26,130 nucleotides of DNA from Chlamydiota bacterium (GCA_016196885.1 JACPWU010000062.1:1-26130); one strand, 5' to 3'. Numbered from the stretch's first letter, positions 601-26,130 are shown. The notes: generated by a model not told the origin, from the letters alone. Translations and numbers: made by a program.

Positions 601-3824
<3,224 letters not shown>

Positions 3825-3906
3825 AGGCCGTACTTCGTGCTTCGTGCTGCGTACTTCGTTGTTGACAAACAACGAAGCACGAAGTACGCAGCACGAAGCA
3901 CGGCCT
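3825..3906. terminator. 82-nt imperfect palindrome built from ACGAAGY heptads, filling the gap between convergent ahcY and lptG; probable bidirectional terminator/stabiliser
   Basis: Left arm AGGCCGT ACTTCGT GCTTCGT GCTGCGT ACTTCGT TGTT, loop GACA (3864-3867), right arm AACA ACGAAGC ACGAAGT ACGCAGC ACGAAGC ACGGCCT. It spans from 1 nt after the ahcY stop into the lptG stop codon. There is no U-tract. Confidence 0.55.
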
Positions 3907-4988
3907 TACTTCAACCTCATCATCAGAATCATCCCCAGCCCTCCAAAAATTCCATTCGCAAGCCAGCTTGCCAGAAGAGGCGGGAGATACCCTTGTTTTC
4001 CCAGGGCGCTCAAGGTAAATTGCAGTCCATAGTAGGTCAGGGTGAGGAGAATGGTTTTGCCCAGGACGGGAAGCGCTCCTCCTCGCGTGATGGTAAGTCC
4101 GATGGGGACCACGACGAGCACCAAGATAAAACAGATCCAGGGTGTGGCCAATTTTTCATAAAGTTCGACGCGTTGCGAGGCGGGAATTCTTCCCCCGTAT
4201 TTCTTTGAAAGGGAATTTTTCAATTCTGAATAATTCATTTGTTCGGATGCCTTTTCTTCTCGAATCAGGTCAAGCGGTGATTCATAAATTCGGGTCTTCC
4301 TTTTGTAAAAAACTTCGGGATCATGTGTGATGTCTCCCGTTTCACTGTACCTGACAATGGTTCCATTGAAGAACCACCATTCGTTGTCCAGCCAGCGCCC
4401 TGTCTGGGCGCGGATGAGTTTGTTCATCGTGCCGTCTGGGTTCAAATAATGAACCTGAACATCCTGTGCTATGTTGGTTTTGGGATCCAGTTTATGAATA
4501 AAAAGGGCGTAGTTCTCCAGCGCATTTCCATAGGTTAAATCTTCATACCTTTGAGAATTTTCGTCTGTTTCCTTCTCGGAAAAAATTTTCTTGAAAATTT
4601 CGCTTTGCAATCGCGTTTGAGGAATGACCTCTTCATTCAAATAAAAGAAAAGGGCACTGAGGACCCATCCCAATAAAAGGAATGGGACGGCAATTCTCTT
4701 AGAAGAAATCCCAGCGGCCCTCATGCCGATGATTTCATGATGTCTCGTAAAATTTCCCAAAAGATAAATCAACGCAAGCACGAGAGAAAAAGGACAGATT
4801 TCAATGTAAATGTTAGGAAGCATGAAAAGGTAATAGCGTAAAATGTCCAACCAGGGTACATGTGATTTTAAGAATTCATCCATGTGCTCAAAGAGGTCTG
4901 CGATCAGATAAAGAAGGAAAAGGGTTAGAATACAATAGAAGAAGGGCAGAATAAATTCTCTTAAAATGTAACGATCAATGATTTTCAT
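3906..4988 (-). CDS. lptG: LptF/LptG-family LPS export ABC permease (second gene of pair)
   Basis: 360 aa. The N-terminus MKIIDRYILREFILPFFYCILTLFLL is typical of the YjgP/YjgQ family. It has multiple TM helices with a large periplasmic loop in the middle. The F versus G assignment rests on gene order only. Confidence 0.75.
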   Translation of the reverse strand: MKIIDRYILREFILPFFYCILTLFLLYLIADLFEHMDEFLKSHVPWLDILRYYLFMLPNIYIEICPFSLVLALIYLLGNFTRHHEIIGMRAAGISSKRIAVPFLLLGWVLSALFFYLNEEVIPQTRLQSEIFKKIFSEKETDENSQRYEDLTYGNALENYALFIHKLDPKTNIAQDVQVHYLNPDGTMNKLIRAQTGRWLDNEWWFFNGTIVRYSETGDITHDPEVFYKRKTRIYESPLDLIREEKASEQMNYSELKNSLSKKYGGRIPASQRVELYEKLATPWICFILVLVVVPIGLTITRGGALPVLGKTILLTLTYYGLQFTLSALGKQGYLPPLLASWLANGIFGGLGMILMMRLK

Positions 4989-6148: not shown

Positions 6149-6221
6149 AAAGGCCTGTTTATTTTTGGATTATCATAGCAGCTGATAACGTTTTTTCATA
6201 GAATAAGTGGCCATGAAGATA

Positions 6222-6298
6222 AATGACAAATTTCCAATGACAAATCAATTTTCAATGATCCAATGCCCAATTCATTCTGGTCATTGGTTATTGAACAT
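6222..6298. repeat. period-7 repeat tract (AATGACA / TGGTCAT type) forming an imperfect hairpin
   Basis: AATGACA AATTTCC AATGACA AATCAAT ... TGGTCAT TGGTTAT TGAACAT. The left units are near-complements of the right units. AATTTCCAATGAC (6229-6241) is also perfectly inverted at 6450-6462. Confidence 0.6.
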
Positions 6299-6301
6299 TC
6301 A

Positions 6302-6439
6302 TTTGCTATGAAAGTGAAGCTCATTCTGTAGTCGCCCCATTTATGGGGCTGCCCGATGAATCGGGCGACTACAAAAAAAGCATGATGGGGAGAACTTTCA
6401 TCGCACACGATGATCTCGTAAAGATCATTGAAATTGATA
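6302..6439 (+). repeat. type-B composite repeat, copy 1 (45-nt REPIN-like core 6328-6372)
   Basis: Nearly identical over about 137 nt to 21270-21406. It lies in the divergent lptF/comF intergenic region. Confidence 0.85.
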
Positions 6440-6453
6440 TTTGAAATGGGTCA

Positions 6454-7227
6454 TTGGAAATTCTTGTTTGCTTGGACAAACTCTCATTTATGACGACAAC
6501 TGAAAAAATTGTTCGTGGGGTTTCTTGGCCCTTTCTTGATCTCCTCTTTCCTCGCCATTGTGAGGGTTGCGCCAAGGTCATGCCTCATGAGAGACGGTCT
6601 TATCTTTGTGAGGGCTGTTTCTCTAGGATCCCGTGGGTGGTGGGCCCCACCTGCCGAATCTGTGCCAAAATTTTTCAGGGCCTGAGTGGTGGAATTTGTT
6701 CGGCTTGTCGAAATTCTGTTTTCTCTTATGAATCCTGCTTTTCTGCGGCACGTTATGATGGCCTTCTTAAGGATTTGCTTCAGAAATTTAAATTTCAAAA
6801 GGCAGAATATTTGGCAGGAACGCTTCAGAAAATATTTTGGGAGGGTGTAAAGAAAAAAATCAATTTTTCAGATTTTGATTTTGCCTTGCCCGCTCCTCTT
6901 CATCCCCGAAAACTGAAAGAGCGGGGGTTTAATCAGGCCTTGATTTTGGCTAAAGAGGTTTCTCATCAAAGCGGTTTGCCTCTTTTTAAAAGAGGCCTCA
7001 TCCGCCAAAAATATTCCGGAGGTCAGACCTTGCAGGATCGTAAGGCACGCTTGGAGAACATCCAAGACAGTTTTAGGGTAGGGCGTTCTCATGAAATTTC
7101 AGGCAAAAAATTATTGCTCGTGGACGATGTTTTAACTACAGGCGCCACGGTTCGGGAGTGTACGCGTGTTCTCAAAGAGGCCGGGGCTAGCGCCATTACT
7201 GTTGCGGTGCTTGCGAGGAGCATGTAA
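6454..7227 (+). CDS. comF: ComF-family phosphoribosyltransferase (ComFC-like)
   Basis: N-terminal Cys pairs (CEGC...CEGC, CRIC...CSAC) and a C-terminal PRTase motif LLLVDDVLTTGATVRE. The ORF opens at TTG 6454. ATG 6490 (MTTTEKIV) is an equally plausible start. Confidence 0.8.
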   Translation: MEILVCLDKLSFMTTTEKIVRGVSWPFLDLLFPRHCEGCAKVMPHERRSYLCEGCFSRIPWVVGPTCRICAKIFQGLSGGICSACRNSVFSYESCFSAARYDGLLKDLLQKFKFQKAEYLAGTLQKIFWEGVKKKINFSDFDFALPAPLHPRKLKERGFNQALILAKEVSHQSGLPLFKRGLIRQKYSGGQTLQDRKARLENIQDSFRVGRSHEISGKKLLLVDDVLTTGATVRECTRVLKEAGASAITVAVLARSM

Positions 7228-7228
7228 G

Positions 7229-7338
7229 ATCAGTCGTGAGTCGTGAGGGGTGAGTCGTGAGTAAAAAAATAATACCTTTAAAACTCACGACTCACGACCG
7301 ACGACTCACAACTGCTTTCAAACTCACGACTCACGACC
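7229..7338. repeat. heptad (GTCGTGA / ACTCACG) inverted-repeat structure with a third, competing arm
   Basis: Left arm is 4 units GTCGTGA GTCGTGA GGGGTGA GTCGTGA (7233-7260). An A/T loop follows. Right arm is ACTCACG ACTCACG ACCGACG ACTCACA (7283-7310). A second right-arm copy, ACTCACG ACTCACG ACC, lies at 7322-7338. Confidence 0.75.
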
Positions 7339-7346
7339 AAAAAGCC

Positions 7347-7374
7347 TTGACACTCTGTCCTCATCGGGTAAAAT
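7347..7374 (+). promoter_or_regulatory. sigma-70-like promoter for gap-pgk-tpiA-secG
   Basis: TTGACA (7347-7352), 16-nt spacer, TAAAAT (7369-7374). The AAAGGAG Shine-Dalgarno at 7397-7403 precedes gap ATG 7412. Confidence 0.55.
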
Positions 7375-7396: not shown

Positions 7397-9683
<2,287 letters not shown>

Positions 9684-9755
9684 ACGTTCAAAAGTTCAAA
9701 GGTGACGCGAAGCGTCATCCTGAGTATCACGAAGGATCTTATCAATAAAGTTTTT

Positions 9756-9893
9756 GGCATATGCACTTGATTCCCCTTAGATAGCAAGCGCCATGGCAAG
9801 AAGTTGTAGTCGCCCCATTCATGGGGCTGTGCCCCTTGCATAGGTTTGCCCGATGAATCGGGCGACTACAAAGGGGAATCAAGTGCATATGCC
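9756..9893 (+). mobile_element. 138-bp MITE with perfect 23-bp TIRs and an 11-bp target-site duplication, carrying a REPIN-like core (9806-9869)
   Basis: The TIRs GGCATATGCACTTGATTCCCCTT (9756-9778) and AAGGGGAATCAAGTGCATATGCC (9871-9893) are exact reverse complements. The direct repeat ATAAAGTTTTT lies at 9745-9755 and 9895-9905. Confidence 0.8.
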
Positions 9894-9910
9894 TATAAAG
9901 TTTTTTACAT

Positions 9911-11173: not shown

Positions 11174-12699
11174 TGCGCCCTTGCGAGGTGAACCCTCAAA
11201 TTAAACGCCTCAAAAAAGTGTTTGGCGTGGTGTATTTTGTCCAAGGGATGTCGAGCCTTCCCCAGCTTTCCTTTTTTTATTACATGATGAATGTTTTGAA
11301 ATTGGGGCCTGTCGCCGGCCAGCTCTTTCAGGGGCTCGATCATGTGGCCTGGTTTTTAAAGCCGCTCTGGGGATGGACTTCAGATCGCTTCCCGTTGAGA
11401 GGCTATCGCAGAAAATCCTATTTTTGCCTCATGGCTACCTTGGCCGTCTTTTCATGGTTCTCAATCGCCCTTTGTGCCTATTTTAAAATCACGGCGATGA
11501 TCCCTTATTTTCTTTTTTTGAATTTAGCCCAACTGGCCTATGCCTTTGTAGATGTGGTCGTGGATGCCCTGATGGTGGAGCGGGGGCAAGAACTTAATCA
11601 AGTCGGTCACTTCGTCAATTTTCAATGGATGATGCTGGGTCTTGCAGCTATGCTTGTGGCTCTTTTCAGTGGTTGGTTTCAAACGAAAATAGAAGGGGGG
11701 AAGTTTTCCTACGCACTCATTTTTGCTTTGACAGGACTGTTCCCTCTTTTAACGCTCATCATCGGTGTGAAAAATTTAGAAGAAGAAAAGGGAATTTATC
11801 CTCAGGTATCTCCCGTCTCATTTTGGAAAAAATTCAGGAATCCCTTCAAATCATTTCCTGAGGCGAAGATTCGATTTCGAAATTTTGAAAAAGAGTACCG
11901 GGCCGTTTTGCTTTTGGCCCTTTTCACTGTGGCCTGGAATTTCAGCCCCTCTGTCAGTTATGCGGCTCGTGCTTACTGGGTCAGTCATTTGGAATTTACC
12001 CCTCTAATTCTGGGCATTTTGGGTGCGGCAAGCAATGTGGTTTTGCTTTTGTCCATTCTTGTTTATCGCTGGGTGGTGCGTCGGTTTGCGCTTATTCAAT
12101 GGTATCATTATCTTTATGCGATGGTTGCATTGGGTGTGGTGTCTTTAGCCGCGGGCTATTATCTTTATTTGCCGCCTGGGCATCCCCTGTCTTTTTCCTT
12201 TTCCTTCCCATGGGAGAGAATTCTTTCTTTGGCCGCCGGATTGAAGGAGTCAGTCATGGGATCTTGGATTTATCGCCTTCTGGAAGGGGCTTCTCATTGG
12301 AATCGTTACCATTGGTGGGCTTTGTTCACGGAGACCACGCTGGGGTTTGCCTCTATCGCAGCCTTCATGATTCCGCTCACCCTGGCGGGGGAAGTGGCCC
12401 AGAGGCATCACGCGGGATTCACGTATGCCCTTTTGATGTCCGTTTCCAATTTTACGAATGCCATTGGGAATGTGGCCGGAGGTGTGCTTTATAAACTTTT
12501 TAGTTTATCAGCCATGACAGGGTTCATGAAAGGTTTCGAAACTTCCCTCTTTAATCTTTCTCACAGCCATGATTCAGAAGTTCTCATTCTGCAACTTTTT
12601 GTTTACATCAGCGCTTTTTTTACTCTTCTCGCCATTCCCTTTGTGGGCATGGTGAGAAGGGAGTTGGAAAGAAAGGGAATCAAGGTAAAATTGGGATAG
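11173..12699 (+). CDS. BT1 (folate/biopterin transporter) family MFS-type membrane protein
   Basis: 508 aa and polytopic. The motif LKPLWGWTSDRFPLRGYRRKSYF matches the BT1 family signature LKPxWGxxSD..P..GYRR. Its ATG overlaps the secG TAA (TAATG at 11171-11175). Confidence 0.7.
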   Translation: MRPCEVNPQIKRLKKVFGVVYFVQGMSSLPQLSFFYYMMNVLKLGPVAGQLFQGLDHVAWFLKPLWGWTSDRFPLRGYRRKSYFCLMATLAVFSWFSIALCAYFKITAMIPYFLFLNLAQLAYAFVDVVVDALMVERGQELNQVGHFVNFQWMMLGLAAMLVALFSGWFQTKIEGGKFSYALIFALTGLFPLLTLIIGVKNLEEEKGIYPQVSPVSFWKKFRNPFKSFPEAKIRFRNFEKEYRAVLLLALFTVAWNFSPSVSYAARAYWVSHLEFTPLILGILGAASNVVLLLSILVYRWVVRRFALIQWYHYLYAMVALGVVSLAAGYYLYLPPGHPLSFSFSFPWERILSLAAGLKESVMGSWIYRLLEGASHWNRYHWWALFTETTLGFASIAAFMIPLTLAGEVAQRHHAGFTYALLMSVSNFTNAIGNVAGGVLYKLFSLSAMTGFMKGFETSLFNLSHSHDSEVLILQLFVYISAFFTLLAIPFVGMVRRELERKGIKVKLG

Positions 12700-12700
12700 A

Positions 12701-12735
12701 ACAGAAGACAGAATTCAGGAGTCAGAATTCAGCAG
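12701..12735 (+). repeat. heptad array ACAGAAG ACAGAAT TCAGGAG TCAGAAT TCAGCAG
   Basis: Five tandem 7-mers that overlap the stop and last four codons of the HAD gene. A same-orientation sister array lies at 13381-13415. Confidence 0.7.
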
Positions 12736-13372
12736 CTTTAAGTAATTCCAGCGGCTTGTGTATCAATTTTTTTGCTCCACTTGCTATTAATTCCTCAGCA
12801 GTTCTAAATCCCCACAAGGCTCCCACAGGAAACATACCGGCTCGGGAAGCTGTCTCCATGTCAATTTTGGTGTCTCCGAGAAAAATAAAATTTTTTGCGT
12901 CCACTTTCATTTTTGAGGCGATTTGAAGAGCAGAAGAAGGATTGGGCTTTTTCGGCATTTCGTCATGGGCCCCTTGAATGACATCAAATTTCCATTTCCC
13001 TAAAAATTTTCGGACAATGAGTTTCGTGAAATCATCTGGCTTATTGGAGAGAATGGCCGTTTTGATTTTTTTTCTTTCCAATTCATCCAGCAATTCTGAA
13101 ATCCCTGGATAGGGATGCGTTTTCTCGGCCCATCGGTGATGGTATTCTTCCCTCATTTGTTTGACGGTTCTGGAAATCATATCAGATTTTCGGTGAATTT
13201 CGGGAAGGGCACTCCAGGCTAAATATTCCACACCTTCTCCCACAAAATCTTTGTAGCTTTCCGTTGGATGAAGGGGCAAGCCAAAAGATTTTAAAACCGT
13301 GTTCATCGAGTCTGCCAAATCGGCCAAGGTGTCGAGCAGTGTTCCGTCAAGATCGAAGAGAATGGCTTTCAT
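12722..13372 (-). CDS. HAD-superfamily hydrolase (phosphoglycolate phosphatase-like)
   Basis: MKAILFDLDGTLLDT (DxDxT motif I), ILSNK (motif II) and LGDTKIDMETA (motif IV-like). Confidence 0.85.
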   Translation of the reverse strand: MKAILFDLDGTLLDTLADLADSMNTVLKSFGLPLHPTESYKDFVGEGVEYLAWSALPEIHRKSDMISRTVKQMREEYHHRWAEKTHPYPGISELLDELERKKIKTAILSNKPDDFTKLIVRKFLGKWKFDVIQGAHDEMPKKPNPSSALQIASKMKVDAKNFIFLGDTKIDMETASRAGMFPVGALWGFRTAEELIASGAKKLIHKPLELLKAAEF

Positions 13373-13380
13373 ACTTAAAT

Positions 13381-13415
13381 ACAGAATACAGAAGACAGAA
13401 GTCAGAAGACAGAAA
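13381..13415 (+). repeat. heptad array ACAGAAT ACAGAAG ACAGAAG TCAGAAG ACAGAAA
   Basis: Five tandem 7-mers starting 9 nt upstream of the HAD start codon (minus strand), so they occupy the expected RBS region. Confidence 0.7.
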
Positions 13416-16006: not shown

Positions 16007-17392
16007 ATGATGTCAAATACCTATCAGTTGATTGTCATCGGGGCTGGGCCTGCGGGAACTTACGGGGCCATTCGTGCTTCTCAATTGGGCATGCGGGTGG
16101 TTTTGGTTGAGAAGGCCCAAGTGGGCGGTGTTTGCTTGAATCAGGGGTGCATTCCTTCCAAGGCGCTTTTGAAATCTGCCAGACTCTTTGAAATTTTTAA
16201 TGAAGCCAAAAGTTTTGGGATTCGCTGTGAAAAAATTTCGCATGATTATTCCTTGATGTGGGAGCGTAGCCGAAAGGTGGTGGAGCGCCTTTCCAAGGGG
16301 ATGGAATTTCTCCTTAAAAAGCACAAGATTGATTTCATCAAAGGGCCTGCTCGTTTAACGGGGCCTCATCAAGTTTCAGTGGAGCCTTCCATTTCCTTTA
16401 AAGCCGACCGGATTTTGATCGCGACGGGGACGGCAGTGAAGGAAATTCCTGGTTTTAAAATAGATGGGAGAAAAATTATCTCGAGCGATCATGCCTTGGC
16501 TCAAACCGTTCTTCCCAAATCCATTTTTATTTTAGGGGGAGGCGCTGTGGGGGCTGAATTTGCTTATTTTTATCGAGCCTTGGGAGTGGATGTCACGATT
16601 TTAGAGGCGCAGGGAAGACTTTTGCCGGGTCTTGAAGTGGAATTGGGCCAAGAGTTGGAAAGGTCCTTTCGAAAAAAAGGAATGAGGGTGCTTTGCGGGA
16701 GCCGAGCGTCTCGGGCGCAAGTGGAGGGGGATGTAGTCAAGGTTTCCTATGAGGATAAAGACCGGGTAGAAAAGGAACTTTATGCTGCTCAGGTGCTCGT
16801 GGCGGTGGGCCGCCAACCTTTCATTGAAGGCTTAGGGCTCGAGGCGCTCGGGGTTCATTTTGAGAATGGATATATTAAAGTCGCAGAAAATTTTCAAACT
16901 TCCGTGCCCTCCCTTTTTGCAGTGGGGGATATCATAGGCCCCCCTCTTTTGGCCCATGCGGCATCTGAGGAGGCCAAGGTAGCGGTGGAGATGATGGCAG
17001 GGAAGAGAAGCGAGGGTCTGGATCGTACTTCTATCCCAAGCTGTGTCTACACACATCCTGAGGTTGCAAGCGTTGGCCTTTCAGAAGAGGATGCGAAAGG
17101 ACAGAATTTTTCTTTCAAAATAGGTAAATTTCCTTTTCGGGCTTTGGGTCGAGCCTTGGCAGAAGGGAGCGACGAGGGATTTGTGAAAACGGTGGTGGAT
17201 GAAAATGGACGACTTTTAGGAGCGCATGTGATCGGAGAGAATGCAACGGAGGTGATTGCGGAACTGACGCTGATTCGCACCTTGGGTTTAACCGTGGAGC
17301 AAATTTCAAAGGTGGTTCATGCCCATCCCACTTTTTCAGAAGGTGTTTTAGAGGGGCTCTTGGCGGCAGAGGGGAGGGCTTTAAATGCTTAA
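16007..17392 (+). CDS. lpdA: dihydrolipoyl dehydrogenase (E3)
   Basis: VIGAGPAGTYGA FAD motif, redox-active disulfide GGVCLNQGCIPSKALL, and C-terminal HAHPTFSE. Start moved to ATG 16007 (MMSNTYQLIVIGAG); the ORF opens at GTG 15959. Confidence 0.9.
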   Translation: MMSNTYQLIVIGAGPAGTYGAIRASQLGMRVVLVEKAQVGGVCLNQGCIPSKALLKSARLFEIFNEAKSFGIRCEKISHDYSLMWERSRKVVERLSKGMEFLLKKHKIDFIKGPARLTGPHQVSVEPSISFKADRILIATGTAVKEIPGFKIDGRKIISSDHALAQTVLPKSIFILGGGAVGAEFAYFYRALGVDVTILEAQGRLLPGLEVELGQELERSFRKKGMRVLCGSRASRAQVEGDVVKVSYEDKDRVEKELYAAQVLVAVGRQPFIEGLGLEALGVHFENGYIKVAENFQTSVPSLFAVGDIIGPPLLAHAASEEAKVAVEMMAGKRSEGLDRTSIPSCVYTHPEVASVGLSEEDAKGQNFSFKIGKFPFRALGRALAEGSDEGFVKTVVDENGRLLGAHVIGENATEVIAELTLIRTLGLTVEQISKVVHAHPTFSEGVLEGLLAAEGRALNA

Positions 17393-17473
17393 ATTGATAA
17401 TGAATAATGGACAATTGGTAATTGACAATGGATAATTGAAAATTATAAATAAATCTTTCCTTCATTATCAATT
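17392..17473. repeat. nine AATNNNN heptads closed by a 13-bp stem
   Basis: AATTGAT AATGAAT AATGGAC AATTGGT AATTGAC AATGGAT AATTGAA AATTATA AATAAAT (17392-17454). AATTGATAATGAA (17392-17404) pairs perfectly with TTCATTATCAATT (17461-17473). Fills the lpdA-lipA gap. Confidence 0.7.
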
Positions 17474-17485
17474 GTTTTAGGACCT

Positions 17486-18373
17486 ATGCTCACATCATCA
17501 CGTCTTCCACAATGGATTCGGGTTCAAGCACCGGGTGGGCAAGAGTATCTGGAGACGAGAAAGATTCTTCAGAGGCTTGCCCTTCGCACGGTTTGTCAAG
17601 AGGCTCGCTGTCCCAACATCGGAGAGTGTTTCGATCATGGGACGGCGACATTCATGATTTTGGGAGATGTATGTACACGTGCTTGCGGGTTTTGCCATGT
17701 CACCAAGGGCAAGCCCATGGCCGTGGATCTGGACGAGCCCGAGCGCTTGGCCGAGGCGACGCTTCAGCTTGGGATGAAACATGTCGTCATCACCTCGGTG
17801 GATCGAGATGATTTGTCTGACGGCGGAGCCGGTCATTTTTCAAAAGTCATTCATGCCATTAAGGCCCGCAGTCCTCAAACGGTGGTAGAGGTACTCACCC
17901 CTGATTTTAGAGGCAATCGGGAGGCACTTCAAACGGTGGTGAAGGCGCCCCTACAGGTGTTTAATCATAATTTGGAAACGGTGCCGCGGCTTTACCAGAG
18001 GGCTAGACGCGGCTCGAAATATGAACGCTCTTTGCAAGTTTTAGCTTGGGCGAAAGAAATCAATCCAAATCTTGTGACGAAATCGGGTTTGATGTTGGGC
18101 TTGGGAGAAGAAGACGAAGAACTTTTTTCTGTATTTCAAGATCTGCGAGCAGTGAATTGTGATGTCTTAACCTTGGGACAATATTTAAGGCCGAGCCTCG
18201 ATCAATTGCCTGTCGAGAGATTTGTCGGCCCTGATGAGTTTAAGGTGCTTGCCGAAAAGGCAAGGCGCTTAGGTTTTAGACATGTAGAGGCCGGGCCCCT
18301 GGTGCGCAGTTCTTACCATGCGTGGAAACATTCAGAAACTGTACTTCGTACTTCGGACATCGTAGATCGTTAA
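17486..18373 (+). CDS. lipA: lipoyl synthase
   Basis: CEEARCPNIGECF auxiliary cluster motif and the radical-SAM motif CTRACGFCHV. The last ~10 codons lie in a heptad array. Confidence 0.95.
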   Translation: MLTSSRLPQWIRVQAPGGQEYLETRKILQRLALRTVCQEARCPNIGECFDHGTATFMILGDVCTRACGFCHVTKGKPMAVDLDEPERLAEATLQLGMKHVVITSVDRDDLSDGGAGHFSKVIHAIKARSPQTVVEVLTPDFRGNREALQTVVKAPLQVFNHNLETVPRLYQRARRGSKYERSLQVLAWAKEINPNLVTKSGLMLGLGEEDEELFSVFQDLRAVNCDVLTLGQYLRPSLDQLPVERFVGPDEFKVLAEKARRLGFRHVEAGPLVRSSYHAWKHSETVLRTSDIVDR

Positions 18374-18437
18374 GAAAACCGGTTCGATCTTCTGTTTTTT
18401 CCTAGTTGATGTTCGAAGTTCGATGTACGATGTTCGT
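18341..18437. repeat. ACGAAGT-family heptad inverted repeat downstream of lipA
   Basis: Left arm GTACTTC GTACTTC GGACATC GTAGATC GT (18341-18370, containing the lipA stop). Right arm GATGTTC GAAGTTC GATGTAC GATGTTC GT (18408-18437). The arms are imperfectly complementary. Confidence 0.6.
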
Positions 18438-18460
18438 TAAGCTAAGAGAGGAACTGAGAA

Positions 18461-19861
18461 ATGTTGTACCGCATAGAAAAAGATGCCTTGGGAGAAAAGA
18501 AAGTTCCAGCCGACGCGTATTACGGGGTTCAGACCGAGAGGGCCATTGAAAATTTTCCCATCAGTGGGATCAAGGCTCATCCTGAATTTATCCGGGCAAC
18601 CGTTCATGTTAAAAGGGCTGCAGCCCGTGTCCATCAGGATTTGAAACTTTTAGAAAGCCGTTTGGCCAAGGCGATCATTTCTGCCTCTGATGAAATTCTT
18701 TCGGGCCAATTCATGGATCAATTTGTTGTGGACATTTATCAGGCCGGTGCAGGCACTTCACATAACATGAATACCAATGAGGTGATTGCCAACCGGGCCA
18801 ACGAAATTTTGGGCGAGAAAAAGGGGTCGTATCAGCCCCTTCATCCGAACGATCACGTAAACATGGCCCAATCTACCAATGATGTGATTCCGACGGCCAT
18901 TCGCATTGCAGCCCTGGGGCTTGTTCAGGAGTTAATCCCCACTTTGGGAACGTTGGCCCAATCGTTTCAAAAGAAGGCAAAGGAGTTCGACCACATTATC
19001 AAGTCCGGGCGGACGCATTTACAAGATGCAGTGCCTATTCGCTTGGGCCAGGAATTTGGCGCTTATGCAGTGAATATCTTGACGCATCAAAATTTAATCC
19101 GAGAGGCCTCAGAACTTTTGAAGAATTTGGGACTGGGGGGAAGCGCGGTGGGAACGGGGCTTAACACCCATCCAGAGTATCGGGTCAGGGTCGCAAAGGC
19201 GCTTTCGGAACAAACAAAACTTCCCTTCAAACCGGCCAAAAATTATTTTGAGACCATGCAAAGTTTGGCTCCCTTCACAAATCTCTCGAGCGCCTTGAGA
19301 AATTTTGCGCTCGACATGATTCGCATTGCGAATGATTTGAGGCTCATGACCTCAGGCCCTCGGGTCGGCTTCGGTGAAATTGTTTTACCCCCTGTTCAAC
19401 CCGGTTCTTCCATCATGCCTGGCAAGGTGAATCCCGTCATGGCTGAAATGTTAAACATGCTCATGTTTCAGGTGATTGGAAATGACACCGCCATCATGAT
19501 GGCCAGTCAGGCGGGACAACTAGAACTCAATGTGATGATGCCCCTCGTCGCTTATCTTCTGCCCCAAACGCTTGAGATTTTGAAAAATTCTCTCCAAGTG
19601 TTCTCTGAAAAATGTGTGCTCGGACTGGAGGCTGACAAAGAAAGATGTCGGCATTACGCTGAATTAACCCCTTCTATTATTACGGCTCTTAGTCCTTTTA
19701 TCGGCTATTCGAAATCGGCCGAGCTCTTTAAAGAATCTTTGAAGAGAAAAGTGGGCGTTCGAGAGCTGGTCATTGAAAAAGGACTGATGACGCGGGAGAA
19801 ATTAGAGAAGGTCTTGGACTTGAAAAAGCTAACAGAGCCTGGAATTCCAGGAAAGGCCTAA
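18461..19861 (+). CDS. aspA: aspartate ammonia-lyase / class II fumarase family lyase (more AspA-like)
   Basis: DAYYGVQTERAIENFPISG, GAGTSHNMNTNEVIANRA and the signature GSSIMPGKVNP. The N-terminal third resembles AspA more than FumC. Assignment within the family is tentative. Confidence 0.75.
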   Translation: MLYRIEKDALGEKKVPADAYYGVQTERAIENFPISGIKAHPEFIRATVHVKRAAARVHQDLKLLESRLAKAIISASDEILSGQFMDQFVVDIYQAGAGTSHNMNTNEVIANRANEILGEKKGSYQPLHPNDHVNMAQSTNDVIPTAIRIAALGLVQELIPTLGTLAQSFQKKAKEFDHIIKSGRTHLQDAVPIRLGQEFGAYAVNILTHQNLIREASELLKNLGLGGSAVGTGLNTHPEYRVRVAKALSEQTKLPFKPAKNYFETMQSLAPFTNLSSALRNFALDMIRIANDLRLMTSGPRVGFGEIVLPPVQPGSSIMPGKVNPVMAEMLNMLMFQVIGNDTAIMMASQAGQLELNVMMPLVAYLLPQTLEILKNSLQVFSEKCVLGLEADKERCRHYAELTPSIITALSPFIGYSKSAELFKESLKRKVGVRELVIEKGLMTREKLEKVLDLKKLTEPGIPGKA

Positions 19862-20060
19862 ATGTTCAAAAAAGAACAATTATGAAAATTTGAACAAGTT
19901 CGTTTAGGGTTTTTCCAAGTTCTTTAACCATCCTTTTATTTTTTAAGATTTTTTAATTCTATAACTCATTCTTAAACAAGTTCTTATCATTTTATTCTCC
20001 TCTATCTGGCTCTTGGCATGTTTGATGCTCTCTTAGTGTTGTCGCAAAGAGGATAAAATT

Positions 20061-20279
20061 ATGAAAACGATGAAGATTTTAATGTTCATGGCAATGGTTC
20101 TTTCAGGGACAGCATTTGCTCAGGAGTCCACTTCTGATTTTGCCCAGGCATTGAAAAACAATCTTCCGGCCTTTGGGCGGCAAATTTACCGTCACGAAAT
20201 TGCTTCGGAATCTCTTCTGAAACCTAGTTTTCAGACTTCGGGTCAGGACATCGTTGTTAAGGCGAAAAAAGATCATTAA
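20061..20279 (+). CDS. small secreted hypothetical protein
   Basis: 72 aa. AGAGGA lies upstream of the ATG. Has a clear signal peptide MKTMKILMFMAMVLSGTAFA-QE and is followed by a terminator-like hairpin. Confidence 0.5.
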   Translation: MKTMKILMFMAMVLSGTAFAQESTSDFAQALKNNLPAFGRQIYRHEIASESLLKPSFQTSGQDIVVKAKKDH

Positions 20280-20313
20280 AAAAAGGGGTAGGGTGTTTTC
20301 TTCACTAGTAGAA

Positions 20314-20344
20314 AGGTCCTCAGGTGGGGGCCTTTTTGCTTTTT
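20314..20344 (+). terminator. intrinsic terminator candidate
   Basis: AGGTCCTC (20314-20321), loop AGGT, GGGGGCCT (20326-20333): 8 bp including two G-U pairs. Followed by TTTTTGCTTTTT. Confidence 0.55.
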
Positions 20345-20554
20345 AGTAGGCTGCTGAAAAAGGCCCATCTGACAATGCCTCCCACTTCGCTCCCTTGTGC
20401 GGCGTACCCTAGCCTGGATTTCTCATCACGAGCTCAAAATGCATACAGCTTGTCATCCCCGAGTGTTTTAATCGGGGATCCAAAAACACCTAAAACTCTG
20501 GATTCCCGCTTACCCCACAGGGGCTATTTCGTTGAAACCTGCGGGAATGTCTAT

Positions 20555-20683
20555 GGAAAAGGTGGTCTCCCCAAGTATTTAAACTTGATGAGCTCTGAAC
20601 ACGAAGTGTTCGGCTATTATGAAGGGGAGAAGAATGGTTGACCCAAACGTCATCCAACATAAGAAAAGGAGACCACCTTTTCC
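20555..20683. repeat. 129-nt element closed by a perfect 16-bp inverted repeat (MITE-like or structured RNA)
   Basis: GGAAAAGGTGGTCTCC (20555-20570) and GGAGACCACCTTTTCC (20668-20683). Internal hairpins are CAAGT/ACTTG (20572-20587) and CTGAACAC-GAA-GTGTTCGG (20595-20613). Confidence 0.6.
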
Positions 20684-20706
20684 AATTTACCGACAGGTGA
20701 TGATGA

Positions 20707-20851
20707 GAAACGGCCATGACTTTCAGTCACAAGGGGGGATGAAAATCACCCTTGTAGTCGCCCCATTTATGGGGCTGCCCGATGAATCGGGCGACTACAA
20801 TTCATCATAACTTATTGTATAAGAATGAGTAAAGACTATTTTCAGATGAAA
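20707..20851 (+). repeat. type-A composite repeat, copy 2 (45-nt core 20754-20798)
   Basis: Same shells as 372-548. The left-shell hairpin is replaced by a different hairpin, TGACT-TTC-AGTCA (20717-20729). Confidence 0.85.
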
Positions 20852-21013
20852 TGCGGGCTAGAACGTACGCCTCCGCGGTCGCTCGTGGGCGCGCTTCCCT
20901 CTGGGACCTTTTTGAGCAGCCTGTCAAGATCAAATGTTTCAGCGACTTGATATTTTTTTCTTGATATACTCTCAGAACTATGAAAAAAGCTTGGGAACTG
21001 GAACCTTAAGAAA

Positions 21014-21232
21014 ATGAAAATTTTTGTGAAGGTGAAGCTTCGTGCCAAAGAATGCCGGGTAAAAAAAATAGATGAAAATCATTTTGAGATAGCTGTGAAA
21101 GAGCCTCCGATTGAAGGTAGGGCGAACGTGGCCGTTACAAAGGCGTTGGCGGAATTTTTTGGGAGAGCTCCCTCCAGAGTGAAAATTCTCTCAGGCTTTT
21201 CATCCAGGCAAAAAATTTTTGAAATAGGGTAA
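21014..21232 (+). CDS. DUF167 (YggU-like) family protein
   Basis: 72 aa. KVKLRAKECRV...IAVKEPPIEGRANVAVTKALAEFFG...VKILSGFSSRQKIFEI matches the DUF167 pattern (ApPveGkAN ... G.tSR.K). Confidence 0.8.
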   Translation: MKIFVKVKLRAKECRVKKIDENHFEIAVKEPPIEGRANVAVTKALAEFFGRAPSRVKILSGFSSRQKIFEIG

Positions 21233-21242
21233 CACGGTTTTT

Positions 21243-21263
21243 ACGAAGTACGATGTACGAAGG
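21243..21263 (+). repeat. three ACGAAGT-family heptads (ACGAAGT ACGATGT ACGAAGG)
   Basis: Same unit family as 3825-3906 and 18341-18437. Sits directly upstream of type-B copy 2. Confidence 0.5.
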
Positions 21264-21269
21264 ACGGTT

Positions 21270-21406
21270 TTTGCTATGAAAGTGAAGCTCACTCTGTAGT
21301 CGCCCCATTTATGGGGCTGCCCGATGAATCGGGCGACTACAAAAAAAGCATGATGGGGAGAACTTTCATCGCACACGATGATCTCGAAAGATCATTGAAA
21401 TTAATA
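21270..21406 (+). repeat. type-B composite repeat, copy 2 (45-nt core 21296-21340)
   Basis: Differs from 6302-6439 at three positions that I can see. Its right end overlaps the moeB-like stop codon (21401-21403). Confidence 0.85.
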
Positions 21407-26016: not shown

Positions 26017-26130
26017 GAAACATTCATGCCGACTGAGGTCGGCACAAAGGGGGATGAAAATCACCCTTGTAGTCGCCCCATTTATGGGGCCGTTGCATGG
26101 ACTGCCCGATGAATCGGGCGACTACAAGTC
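26017..26130 (+). repeat. type-A composite repeat, copy 3 (core 26069-26125, 13-nt spacer), truncated by the window end
   Basis: The left shell is identical to copy 1 from GAAACATTCATGCCGACTGAGGTCGGCAC through GTAGTC. Confidence 0.85.

Follow-up and report, generated by a model that had tools for sequence, protein, structure and literature searches.

The STRR1-3 units of cyanobacteria are CCCCAGT, TTGGTCA and CAACAGT, and Vioque is said to have reported in 1997 that a helix of RNase P RNA has both of its arms built from STRR units. Intergenic STRR hairpins are known in cyanobacteria, for example at hupS/hupL, and roles in transcript stability, translational coupling or termination have been proposed for them (PMC2670836). 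In Xanthomonas, GGGAATC heptamers occur as inverted pairs near stop codons (Rehm et al. 2015, PMC4692102), and TAACTGA direct repeats are found in Beggiatoaceae, Cyanobacteria and Bacteroidetes (PMC4679880). Among long SSRs, heptanucleotides form the most abundant class in most prokaryotic genomes, and their distribution over lineages is sporadic, according to the accounts of Mrazek 2007 given in PMC4679880 and PMC4692102. REPs of E. coli, as summarised in PMC12306157, stabilise the upstream mRNA and stall ribosomes when they lie within 15 nt of a stop codon, and the inverted doublets known as REPINs are mobilised together as one unit (PMC3337134).

In this study, the heptamer repeats of a single stretch of DNA of 26,130 bp (hereafter the window, meaning that whole stretch; G+C = 46.5%) were analysed. 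The proteins of the window carry the NCBI label 'MAG: ... [Chlamydiae bacterium] / [Chlamydiota bacterium]', and a cyanobacterial origin was rejected. AhcY was matched at 72-73% identity at best in GTDB genomes and JGI metagenomes, with nothing above 73%; no cyanobacterial locus was present among the 160 best AhcY loci. Pfam analysis identified an NTP-transferase::MetK fusion, AhcY, LptG, LptF, a ComF-like protein, Gap-Pgk-Tpi-SecG-BT1, HAD, an LTXXQ protein, an ECF sigma factor, a response regulator, LpdA, LipA, FumC/AspA, a DUF167-like ORF (21014-21232), MoeB, an aldo-keto reductase, SodC, BioD and a CAAX protease. No database record was found for the ComF-like protein, and no tRNA genes were found in the window. 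Rfam gave nothing at the gathering score across the whole window, and the matches at 6150-6460 were at chance level only. Logan assemblies of SRR12113387 and SRR12113416 reproduced the window sequence exactly, and every array copy recovered from Logan contigs for copy-number comparison was identical to that of the window.

Period-7 arrays and hairpins in the window

A sliding autocorrelation scan of the window detected eight segments at lag 7, against 0.04 expected from Markov-1 shuffles; the other lags from 4 to 13 and lag 15 gave 0-1 segments each, and lag 14, the harmonic, gave four. TRF recovered the same period-7 arrays. The lag-7 self-match fraction of the individual loci ranged from 0.53 to 0.86, and no other window stretch of equal length attains these values. 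The eight loci at which the initial annotation had listed tandem 7-mers are all genuine period-7 arrays by these three analyses, and they are heptanucleotide long SSRs in the usual sense of a 5-11-nt unit repeated in tandem over a length beyond chance. Relaxed thresholds revealed no further heptamer locus in the window, the only addition being a period-8 array over the pgk stop that was absent from the initial list. The features, with this array included, are given below.

3824..3907, strand not assigned: main hairpin; left arm 3825-3863 of RCTTCGT units, right arm 3868-3906 of ACGAAGY units, 4-nt loop.
6222..6305, plus strand: degenerate AATGACA / TGGTCAT-type period-7/14 stretch in the divergent lptF/comF gap; lag-7 fraction 0.53.
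7229..7338, plus strand: GTCGTGA / TCACGAC hairpin; arms 7231-7262 and 7283-7314, third partial arm 7322-7337.
9666..9703, plus strand: period-8 array GTTYAAAN over the pgk stop, adding 3 residues to PGK.
12701..12735, plus strand: direct ACAGAAG/TCAGAAT array; no hairpin (z -1.1); lag-7 fraction 0.71.
13381..13415, plus strand: direct ACAGAAG array of five units; no hairpin (z -0.8); lag-7 fraction 0.86.
17392..17473, plus strand: AT-rich AATTGAY/AATGGAY array with a weak long hairpin; lag-7 fraction 0.68.
18341..18437, plus strand: ACTTCGT / CGAAGTT-type hairpin; left arm 18341-18371, right arm 18405-18437.
21243..21263, plus strand: short direct ACGAAGT array of three units; no hairpin (z +1.4); lag-7 fraction 0.79.

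At least five unit families, none of them G-rich, occur in the window; within these 26 kb, the ACGAAGY family is present at three loci and the ACAGAAG family at two. Most arrays had initially been described as inverted pairs that form hairpins directly after stop codons, a description that proved correct only in part. Folding with shuffle z scores supported clear hairpins at four loci (3825-3906, 7229-7338, 17392-17473 and 18341-18437), and six of the eight loci overlap a stop codon or begin 0-10 nt from one. Against it, the hairpin at 6241-6305 is marginal or weak, three arrays (12701-12735, 13381-13415 and 21243-21263) are direct and lack a hairpin, and two loci (13381-13415 and 6222-6298) lie in divergent 5' gaps.

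The main hairpin extends from the ahcY stop (3822-3824) to the lptG stop (3906-3908) and occupies the entire convergent gap, in agreement with the initial coordinates. The region 3820-3910 folds at -57.7 kcal/mol (z -11.6), and the opposite strand is equally strong (-60.5, z -10.9). Each arm mirrors the other with an offset of one unit, and complementarity in register is 88%; when slipped by one unit (7 nt), 24 of 24 bases are complementary, so that the hairpin is register-slippable as had been proposed. The GTCGTGA hairpin begins 1 nt 3' of the comF-like stop (region 7225-7345: -48.4 kcal/mol, z -8.7), and a promoter-like TTGACA-16-TAAAAT is located at 7347-7374, between this hairpin and the gap gene.

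The remaining arrays are weaker or unpaired. The array at 12701-12735 begins 1 nt after the BT1 stop, crosses the 22-nt convergent gap and enters the last HAD codons. That at 13381-13415 sits in a divergent gap 8 nt upstream of the HAD start codon and has the same unit and strand, and the HAD gene is thus flanked by direct arrays. The 17392-17473 array lies in the lpdA/lipA gap and overlaps the lpdA stop (region 17388-17475: -19.7 kcal/mol, z -3.7). For the 18341-18437 hairpin (region 18335-18445: -30.9 kcal/mol, z -2.9), the left arm is inside lipA and encodes a 12-aa C-terminal tail of LipA, ETVLRTSDIVDR, which is missing from homologues, and the right arm terminates 24 nt before fumC. The 21243-21263 array is 10 nt 3' of the stop of the DUF167-like ORF and is flanked by a 9-nt direct repeat, ACGGTTTTT. 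The region 6215-6305 of the degenerate stretch folds at -21.2 kcal/mol (z -2.5). Repeat-encoded C-terminal tails are found in LipA and PGK; AhcY, LptG, ComF, BT1 and LpdA retain their native C-termini, and the elements at these genes therefore begin exactly after native stops.

The hairpins of the window resemble intrinsic terminators in forming a stable structure directly 3' of a gene. None is followed by a canonical U-tract within a few nt 3' of the stem, and the initial statement to this effect needs qualification only for two partial cases, namely the TTTT after 17473 and a weak inner hairpin that lies between the arms at 18349-18395 and has TTCTGTTTTTT after it.

Orthologous gaps and dispersed palindromic elements

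Relatives with shared gene order were obtained from LptG and LipA protein searches, and comparison with them is, in our judgement, the decisive evidence. L165 (GCA_016178055.1; LptG 65% identical) contains ten lag-7 arrays in 21 kb. Its orthologous lptG/ahcY gap holds a heptamer hairpin of -46 kcal/mol that consists of CGGATTG units, not ACGAAGY. L165 has further arrays 3' of BT1, across the stop of pgk and in the divergent comF/lptF gap; the array over the pgk stop is the ortholog of the period-8 array of the window, and in the comF/lptF gap the window 6222 array and the L165 element share AATGACAAATCA. Four orthologous gaps contain arrays in both the window and L165, an overlap that does not reach significance (chance probability approximately 0.14 by a hand calculation from which too-small gaps were excluded). 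L172 (GCA_016196915.1; LipA 68% identical) has hairpins in the lpdA/lipA, lipA/fumC and DUF167/moeB gaps, and the window arrays in these gaps are composed of different units. The orthologous lpdA/lipA gaps of L172 and L171 contain a heptamer-armed element different from the 17392 array. In L173, a 7-aa LipA tail is derived from the orthologous heptamer array, and the right arm is missing. Array units and lengths differ among relatives.

Other relatives have no arrays at all. L167 (GCA_041906865.1) and L168-170 (JGI), with LptG 60-63% identical, contain zero arrays, and the lptG/ahcY gap of L167 and L168 folds at only -9 to -10 kcal/mol. Because L167 and L168 possess neither arrays nor a strong hairpin at this site, the heptamer elements are not a conserved requirement of the adjoining genes, and the idea of a conserved gene-end system is not borne out. 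These comparisons showed that array presence is a property of the genome, with many arrays in some relatives and none in close syntenic ones.

A second element, of the AAAATCA family, is a palindrome of ~125 nt present at five to six sites in L172, L165 and L171, with heptamer-periodic arms, GAAAATYCAAAAATCAAACATCAAAAATCAAAATGACAAATCAAAATTTAAAAT, and a conserved loop, GTCTCCCTTGCAATAGCATTA. Four copies are in L172, one is in L165 and a relic is in L171. Two copies start with the TGA of the upstream gene and one directly after a TAA. The L165 hairpin lies in a divergent gap and, like the two divergent loci of the window, shows that placement is not confined to 3' ends. The tsaD/alr gap measures 169 nt with the element in L172 (filled) and 6 nt in L171 (empty). 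The element resembles a MITE in that it is discrete, bears terminal inverted repeats and is present or absent at orthologous sites. No clear target-site duplication was seen at the compared junctions. No transposase or other mobilising enzyme was found in the window by Pfam, and neither the window nor the genes listed for L165 and L172 include a RAYT transposase. Beyond the shared AATGACAAATCA, the AT-rich arrays of the window (17392 and 6222) gave no convincing alignment to the AAAATCA element in orthologous gaps.

A comparable case involves the window itself. The arms and loop of the GTCGTGA hairpin (window 7229) align with L166 17901-17981, a non-orthologous site immediately 5' of an unrelated gene; LptG of that genome is 61% identical. 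Among the window families, such loop conservation was found for GTCGTGA only, and the main ACGAAGY hairpin has no such case within the 26 kb of this genome. Since loops are conserved together with arms at non-orthologous sites, the hairpins of these two families are dispersed palindromic elements and not only products of local slippage. Both cases show whole hairpins that appear to have been copied to new sites and afterwards to have decayed or turned over. Taken as a whole, the elements resemble palindromic repeats that are dispersed and change fast, and not a conserved terminator system.

A bolder proposal is that heptamer-armed palindromes constitute their own class of non-autonomous mobile element, in which an enzyme copies arms and loop together with a preference for stop codons; we regard this as a tentative idea that is rather unlikely to be correct. 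If it were true, the excess of 7-nt tandem repeats in bacteria would partly be the footprint of such elements and not of polymerase slippage alone.

Wider census and competing explanations

The generality of the arrays was assessed in 160 unrelated AhcY loci (about 2.2-2.3 Mb of bacterial DNA), treated as a random sample. Genes were called by a crude longest-ORF method, which is unreliable in GC-rich loci. Unit sharing was scored by exact canonical units; single-linkage at no more than one mismatch merged everything and was dropped. Lag 7 yielded 119 arrays, compared with 11, 37, 11 and 20 for lags 5, 8, 10 and 11, respectively; lags at multiples of 3 are raised by coding periodicity. Intergenic DNA makes up ~9.5% of the sample, and 74 of 116 lag-7 arrays were intergenic. 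The arrays were unevenly distributed: 119 of 168 loci had none (81 expected), and 13 had at least five (0.6 expected). The array-rich loci belonged to MAGs labelled Nitrospinota, Elusimicrobia, Chloroflexi, Acidobacteriota, Deltaproteobacteria, Kuenenbacteria and others. An identical canonical unit was shared by 4.4% of distant within-locus pairs and by 0.21% of between-locus pairs (~20x). The arrays are not special to the present genome, since many phyla have heptamer arrays, some of them as inverted pairs, and such arrays are described in the literature (PMC4692102, PMC4679880, PMC2670836).

Several of these observations are expected if the arrays are neutral by-products of replication slippage, in which a 7-nt bias reflects the polymerase footprint (Mrazek et al. 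2007), repeats accumulate in unconstrained sequence and hairpins are incidental. The dominance of period 7 among non-coding tandem periods across unrelated phyla (119 versus 11 to 37), the strong intergenic bias, and the turnover of units between relatives, with close relatives lacking arrays, are all consistent with this explanation, and polymerase slippage is proposed in the literature as cited in PMC4679880 and PMC4692102. However, identical units at dispersed sites, loops conserved at non-orthologous sites and mirror-image arms are not accounted for by slippage alone. Nor does slippage explain the stop-side placement in long gaps: in tandem gaps of at least 120 nt, the arrays were nearer to the stop than to the start at four of four paired sites and at 10 of 14 sites overall. 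Slippage as a complete account is accordingly doubtful.

Another reading, which develops the gene-end structures of the initial annotation, takes the hairpins for factor-independent terminators without a U-tract, selected to end transcripts and bidirectional in convergent gaps. The strong GC-rich hairpins right after the stops at 3825 and 7229 are compatible with termination, as are the promoter-like site that follows the 7229 hairpin before gap and the heptamer hairpin in the ahcY/lptG convergent gap of both the window and L165. With regard to placement, census arrays were strongly intergenic, and their densities were similar among gap types (0.41 per kb in tandem, 0.29 in convergent and 0.27 in divergent gaps, all arrays). 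Paired arrays were less common in divergent gaps (2 of 11) than in gaps containing a 3' end (28 of 57), but the difference was not significant (Fisher p = 0.096, relatives included). A rule that paired arrays never occupy divergent gaps was suggested by the first census (25/52 versus 0/9) and failed when the relatives were included. The deficit is therefore a non-significant trend and not a rule.

Other evidence counts more directly against terminators. The U-tract is absent, and L167 and L168 lack a strong hairpin in the same lptG/ahcY gap. Paired elements usually start 0-6 nt after the upstream stop, without T-tracts, and often leave 0-25 nt to the next start (in the window, 18437 to 18461), which provides no room for a promoter; with so short a distance in many cases, an intercistronic hairpin fits better than a terminator. 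U-tract terminator-like sites are present elsewhere in the window, e.g. at 15422-15395 on the minus strand, and the organism thus does not lack them. We infer that the hairpins are neither canonical intrinsic terminators nor a conserved, indispensable gene-end system, and selection as terminators is considered unlikely.

In 20 tandem-gap hairpins, 56 G-U pairs were counted on the sense strand versus 30 on the antisense strand, and the sense fold was the more stable in 13 of the 20 (Wilcoxon p = 0.046). This bias is marginal and could reflect strand composition; it weakly supports folding at the RNA level.

Alternatively, the arrays, especially unpaired ones near starts, could be bound by a protein that covers ~7 nt (such as a nucleoid protein, ribosomal protein S1 or one with a cold-shock domain), and such a protein could also melt or lock hairpins. 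The 13381-13415 array ends 8 nt before the HAD start with no obvious Shine-Dalgarno; TAACTGA repeats are similarly arranged, with S1, Csp and CsrA proposed as binders (PMC4679880), and the small set of units in each genome is compatible with a factor that recognises them. At least five unrelated units in 26 kb are hard to reconcile with one sequence-specific binder, and no candidate protein in the window was linked to the arrays by Pfam, which makes this explanation improbable. An assembly artefact, with repeats mis-joined or collapsed in a metagenome contig, is scarcely credible: Logan contigs do break at repeats (L002 ends in the 3825 hairpin loop, and L001 and L163 begin at REP copies), but over five of its eight arrays the window is matched at 100% identity by four Logan contigs, which come from two runs, equivalent elements exist in independent MAGs and in JGI or Logan contigs, and the identity of independent Logan assemblies of two runs excludes an artefact of one assembler.

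Preferred reading and comparison with described systems

On balance, we lean towards the view that the elements are STRR-like, heptamer-armed palindromic repeats that are tolerated at stop codons and act in a REP-like manner once transcribed, and we place moderate confidence in this whole package. Slipped-strand mispairing would lengthen and shorten the arrays, and inverted copying or hairpin-templated correction would keep the arms complementary. Copies may spread by some copy-and-paste or recombination route, and would be retained at sites that tolerate a long hairpin in the transcript, mainly directly 3' of stop codons. By analogy with REP elements of E. coli, a transcribed hairpin without a U-tract would most likely block 3'-to-5' exonucleases, and read-through into neighbouring genes would be only partly damped. 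Because the hairpins start within about 15 nt of the stop codon, they are also proposed to lie in the path of the terminating ribosome. Three arrays are unpaired and two lie in 5' gaps, and hence one function cannot cover all arrays of the window.

Heptamer-repeat elements were already known in cyanobacteria and Xanthomonas. What is new is the occurrence of heptamer unit families in a PVC-labelled uncultured lineage, in which two families act as discrete palindromic elements. The lineage offers a compact test case, as syntenic genomes with elements (the window, L165 and L172) can be set against those without (L167 and L168). Some elements abut, supply or extend stop codons. There are practical consequences as well: short-read assemblies break at the elements, and annotated proteins such as LipA and PGK gain repeat-encoded tails.

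The long SSRs of Mrazek, Guo and Shah 2007 are one comparable class. The heptamer abundance attributed to them was reproduced by the 2.3-Mb census; in the accounts of that work cited above they are treated as slippage products, with no mention of a position at stop codons or of hairpins that have mirror arms and a conserved loop. Intrinsic (Rho-independent) terminators share the stable hairpin directly downstream of a gene, but the present hairpins have no U-tract, their stems are far longer (30-40 bp) and many stand immediately before the next start codon. REPs and REPINs are likewise dispersed intergenic palindromes, often just 3' of stop codons. Unlike them, the heptamer hairpins carry no GTAG or CGTC tag, and their arms are much longer and internally repeated. 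A GTAG-tagged REP doublet family, GTAGTCGCCCC...GGGGC, coexists with the heptamer hairpins in the window (PMC3733652). TAACTGA repeats are direct heptamers situated a few nt before starts without an evident canonical ribosome-binding site, an arrangement similar to that of the window array at 13381-13415; they differ in their unit, and TAACTGA arrays are almost never inverted.

The Xanthomonas GGGAATC repeats often consist of two convergently oriented copies able to form stem-loops, are enriched between co-oriented or convergent ORFs, lie within 50 bp of a stop or overlap it, are rarer between divergent ORFs, and turn over in array length and sequence among related species. Close convergent inverted arrays within 50 bp of a stop, or overlapping it, were also found in the window. 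The Xanthomonas repeats are a single G-rich family with G-quadruplex potential, in contrast to the families described here, and no arrays of TAACTGA, GGGAATC or GGGGATT units were detected in the window.

The STRR elements of filamentous cyanobacteria share with the window tandem 7-bp units, several families, intergenic dispersal and hairpins between genes. As in that system, several families are each present at multiple intergenic loci, many are paired and most are flush with stops, and the STRR-like character noted at the outset is upheld. The identity of the units with the named STRR units was rejected: no STRR1-3 arrays, with the units given above, were found in the window, and the nearest match is an imperfect two-unit CTGGTCATTGGTTA at 6277 only. 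The initial annotation, which had noticed a resemblance to STRR, rightly refrained from a cyanobacterial assignment in view of the Chlamydiota labels and the lack of STRR1-3 arrays. The elements described here thus differ from STRR in unit sequence, in their host, a Chlamydiota-labelled MAG instead of a cyanobacterium, and in that two families keep their loops and form discrete palindromic elements. In architecture, they match both STRR and the inverted pairs of Xanthomonas.

Repeat-encoded protein ends and direct heptamer arrays

The lipA gene product ends in 12 residues, ETVLRTSDIVDR, which are encoded by one heptamer arm (window 18338-18373) and are not found in homologues. The LipA of L173, the closest relative, carries a different tail of 7 aa that is also repeat-encoded (L173 5306-5331), and these features together indicate that a heptamer array replaced the native stop codon. 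The stop codon of pgk is likewise spanned by a GTTYAAA(N) array, with a period of 8 in the window (9666-9703) and of 7/8 in the array-rich syntenic relative L165 (4535-4575); PGK is consequently ~3 residues longer in both than in the array-free relative L168. The same unit was found again at L165 18344-18384 and in L172, a second array-rich relative, at 12241-12271.

Direct arrays of identical unit and strand (12701-12735 and 13381-13415) flank the following gene:
12722-13372, minus strand, HAD-hydrolase gene

From this layout, its mRNA would be predicted to carry CUUCUGU-type repeats at both ends. No obvious Shine-Dalgarno motif was found upstream of the gene start, and the L172 orthologue is without flanking direct arrays. 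Elsewhere, a three-unit ACGAAGT array is bordered on each side by the 9-nt direct repeat ACGGTTTTT (21234-21242 and 21264-21272), and this repeat around a 21-nt insert resembles a target-site duplication.

Gene fusion and sparsely coding region

A single ORF of 649 aa (601-2550), which overlaps ahcY by 4 nt, fuses a nucleotidyl-transferase domain to S-adenosylmethionine synthetase. The fusion is common to the window and L165 (12483-14432); the two are separate neighbouring genes in the array-free relatives L167 (5739-7677) and L168 (8518-10466). Recognisable coding is scant over ~1.1 kb at 19862-21013, where the following features were recorded:
20062-20280, signal-peptide ORF, 72 aa
20324-20641, 105-aa ORF without Pfam match
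20554-20570 / 20668-20684, perfect 17-nt inverted repeat

GTAG-tagged REP doublets

Besides the heptamers, the window contains a second repeat family, the GTAG-tagged REPs, with the sequence GTAGTCGCCCC-ATTTAT-GGGGC and the near mirror GCCCGATGAATCGGGCGACTAC:
421-498, REP doublet
6319-6381, REP doublet
9804-9871, REP doublet
20752-20800, REP doublet
21295-21341, REP doublet
26066-26128, REP doublet
L165 5858-5879, REP copy

The 26 kb hold six copies, where 0 would be predicted from chance alone; outside the window, the family was represented by the one L165 copy and by none in 169 other loci. No matching family was found in Rfam, and no RAYT gene within the window.

The doublets are embedded in longer repeated units of two subtypes, with flanks shared within each subtype:
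~6299-6435, longer unit, ~130-bp subtype
~21275-21400, longer unit, ~130-bp subtype
380-540, 20715-20860 and 26030-26130, other longer units

A heptamer array lies directly upstream of both copies of the ~130-bp subtype (2/2), and the spacer of the doublet at 421-498 holds a short heptamer array, CATTGTGG CATTGGG CATTG (455-474). In the pgk/tpi gap, a 35-nt inverted repeat (9744-9778 / 9871-9905, 86% complementary) surrounds the doublet at 9804-9871, and the arrangement looks like one palindromic element nested within the loop of another.

Three Logan contigs, which were assembled independently from short reads and are identical to the window, stop exactly at repeats (519, 3873 and 9868), namely in the loop of the ahcY/lptG hairpin (3825-3906) and at REP doublet edges; therefore, hairpin and REP elements fragment assemblies of this lineage. 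The REPs are paired as inverted doublets with a variable spacer of 0-30 nt, and this layout is REPIN-like.
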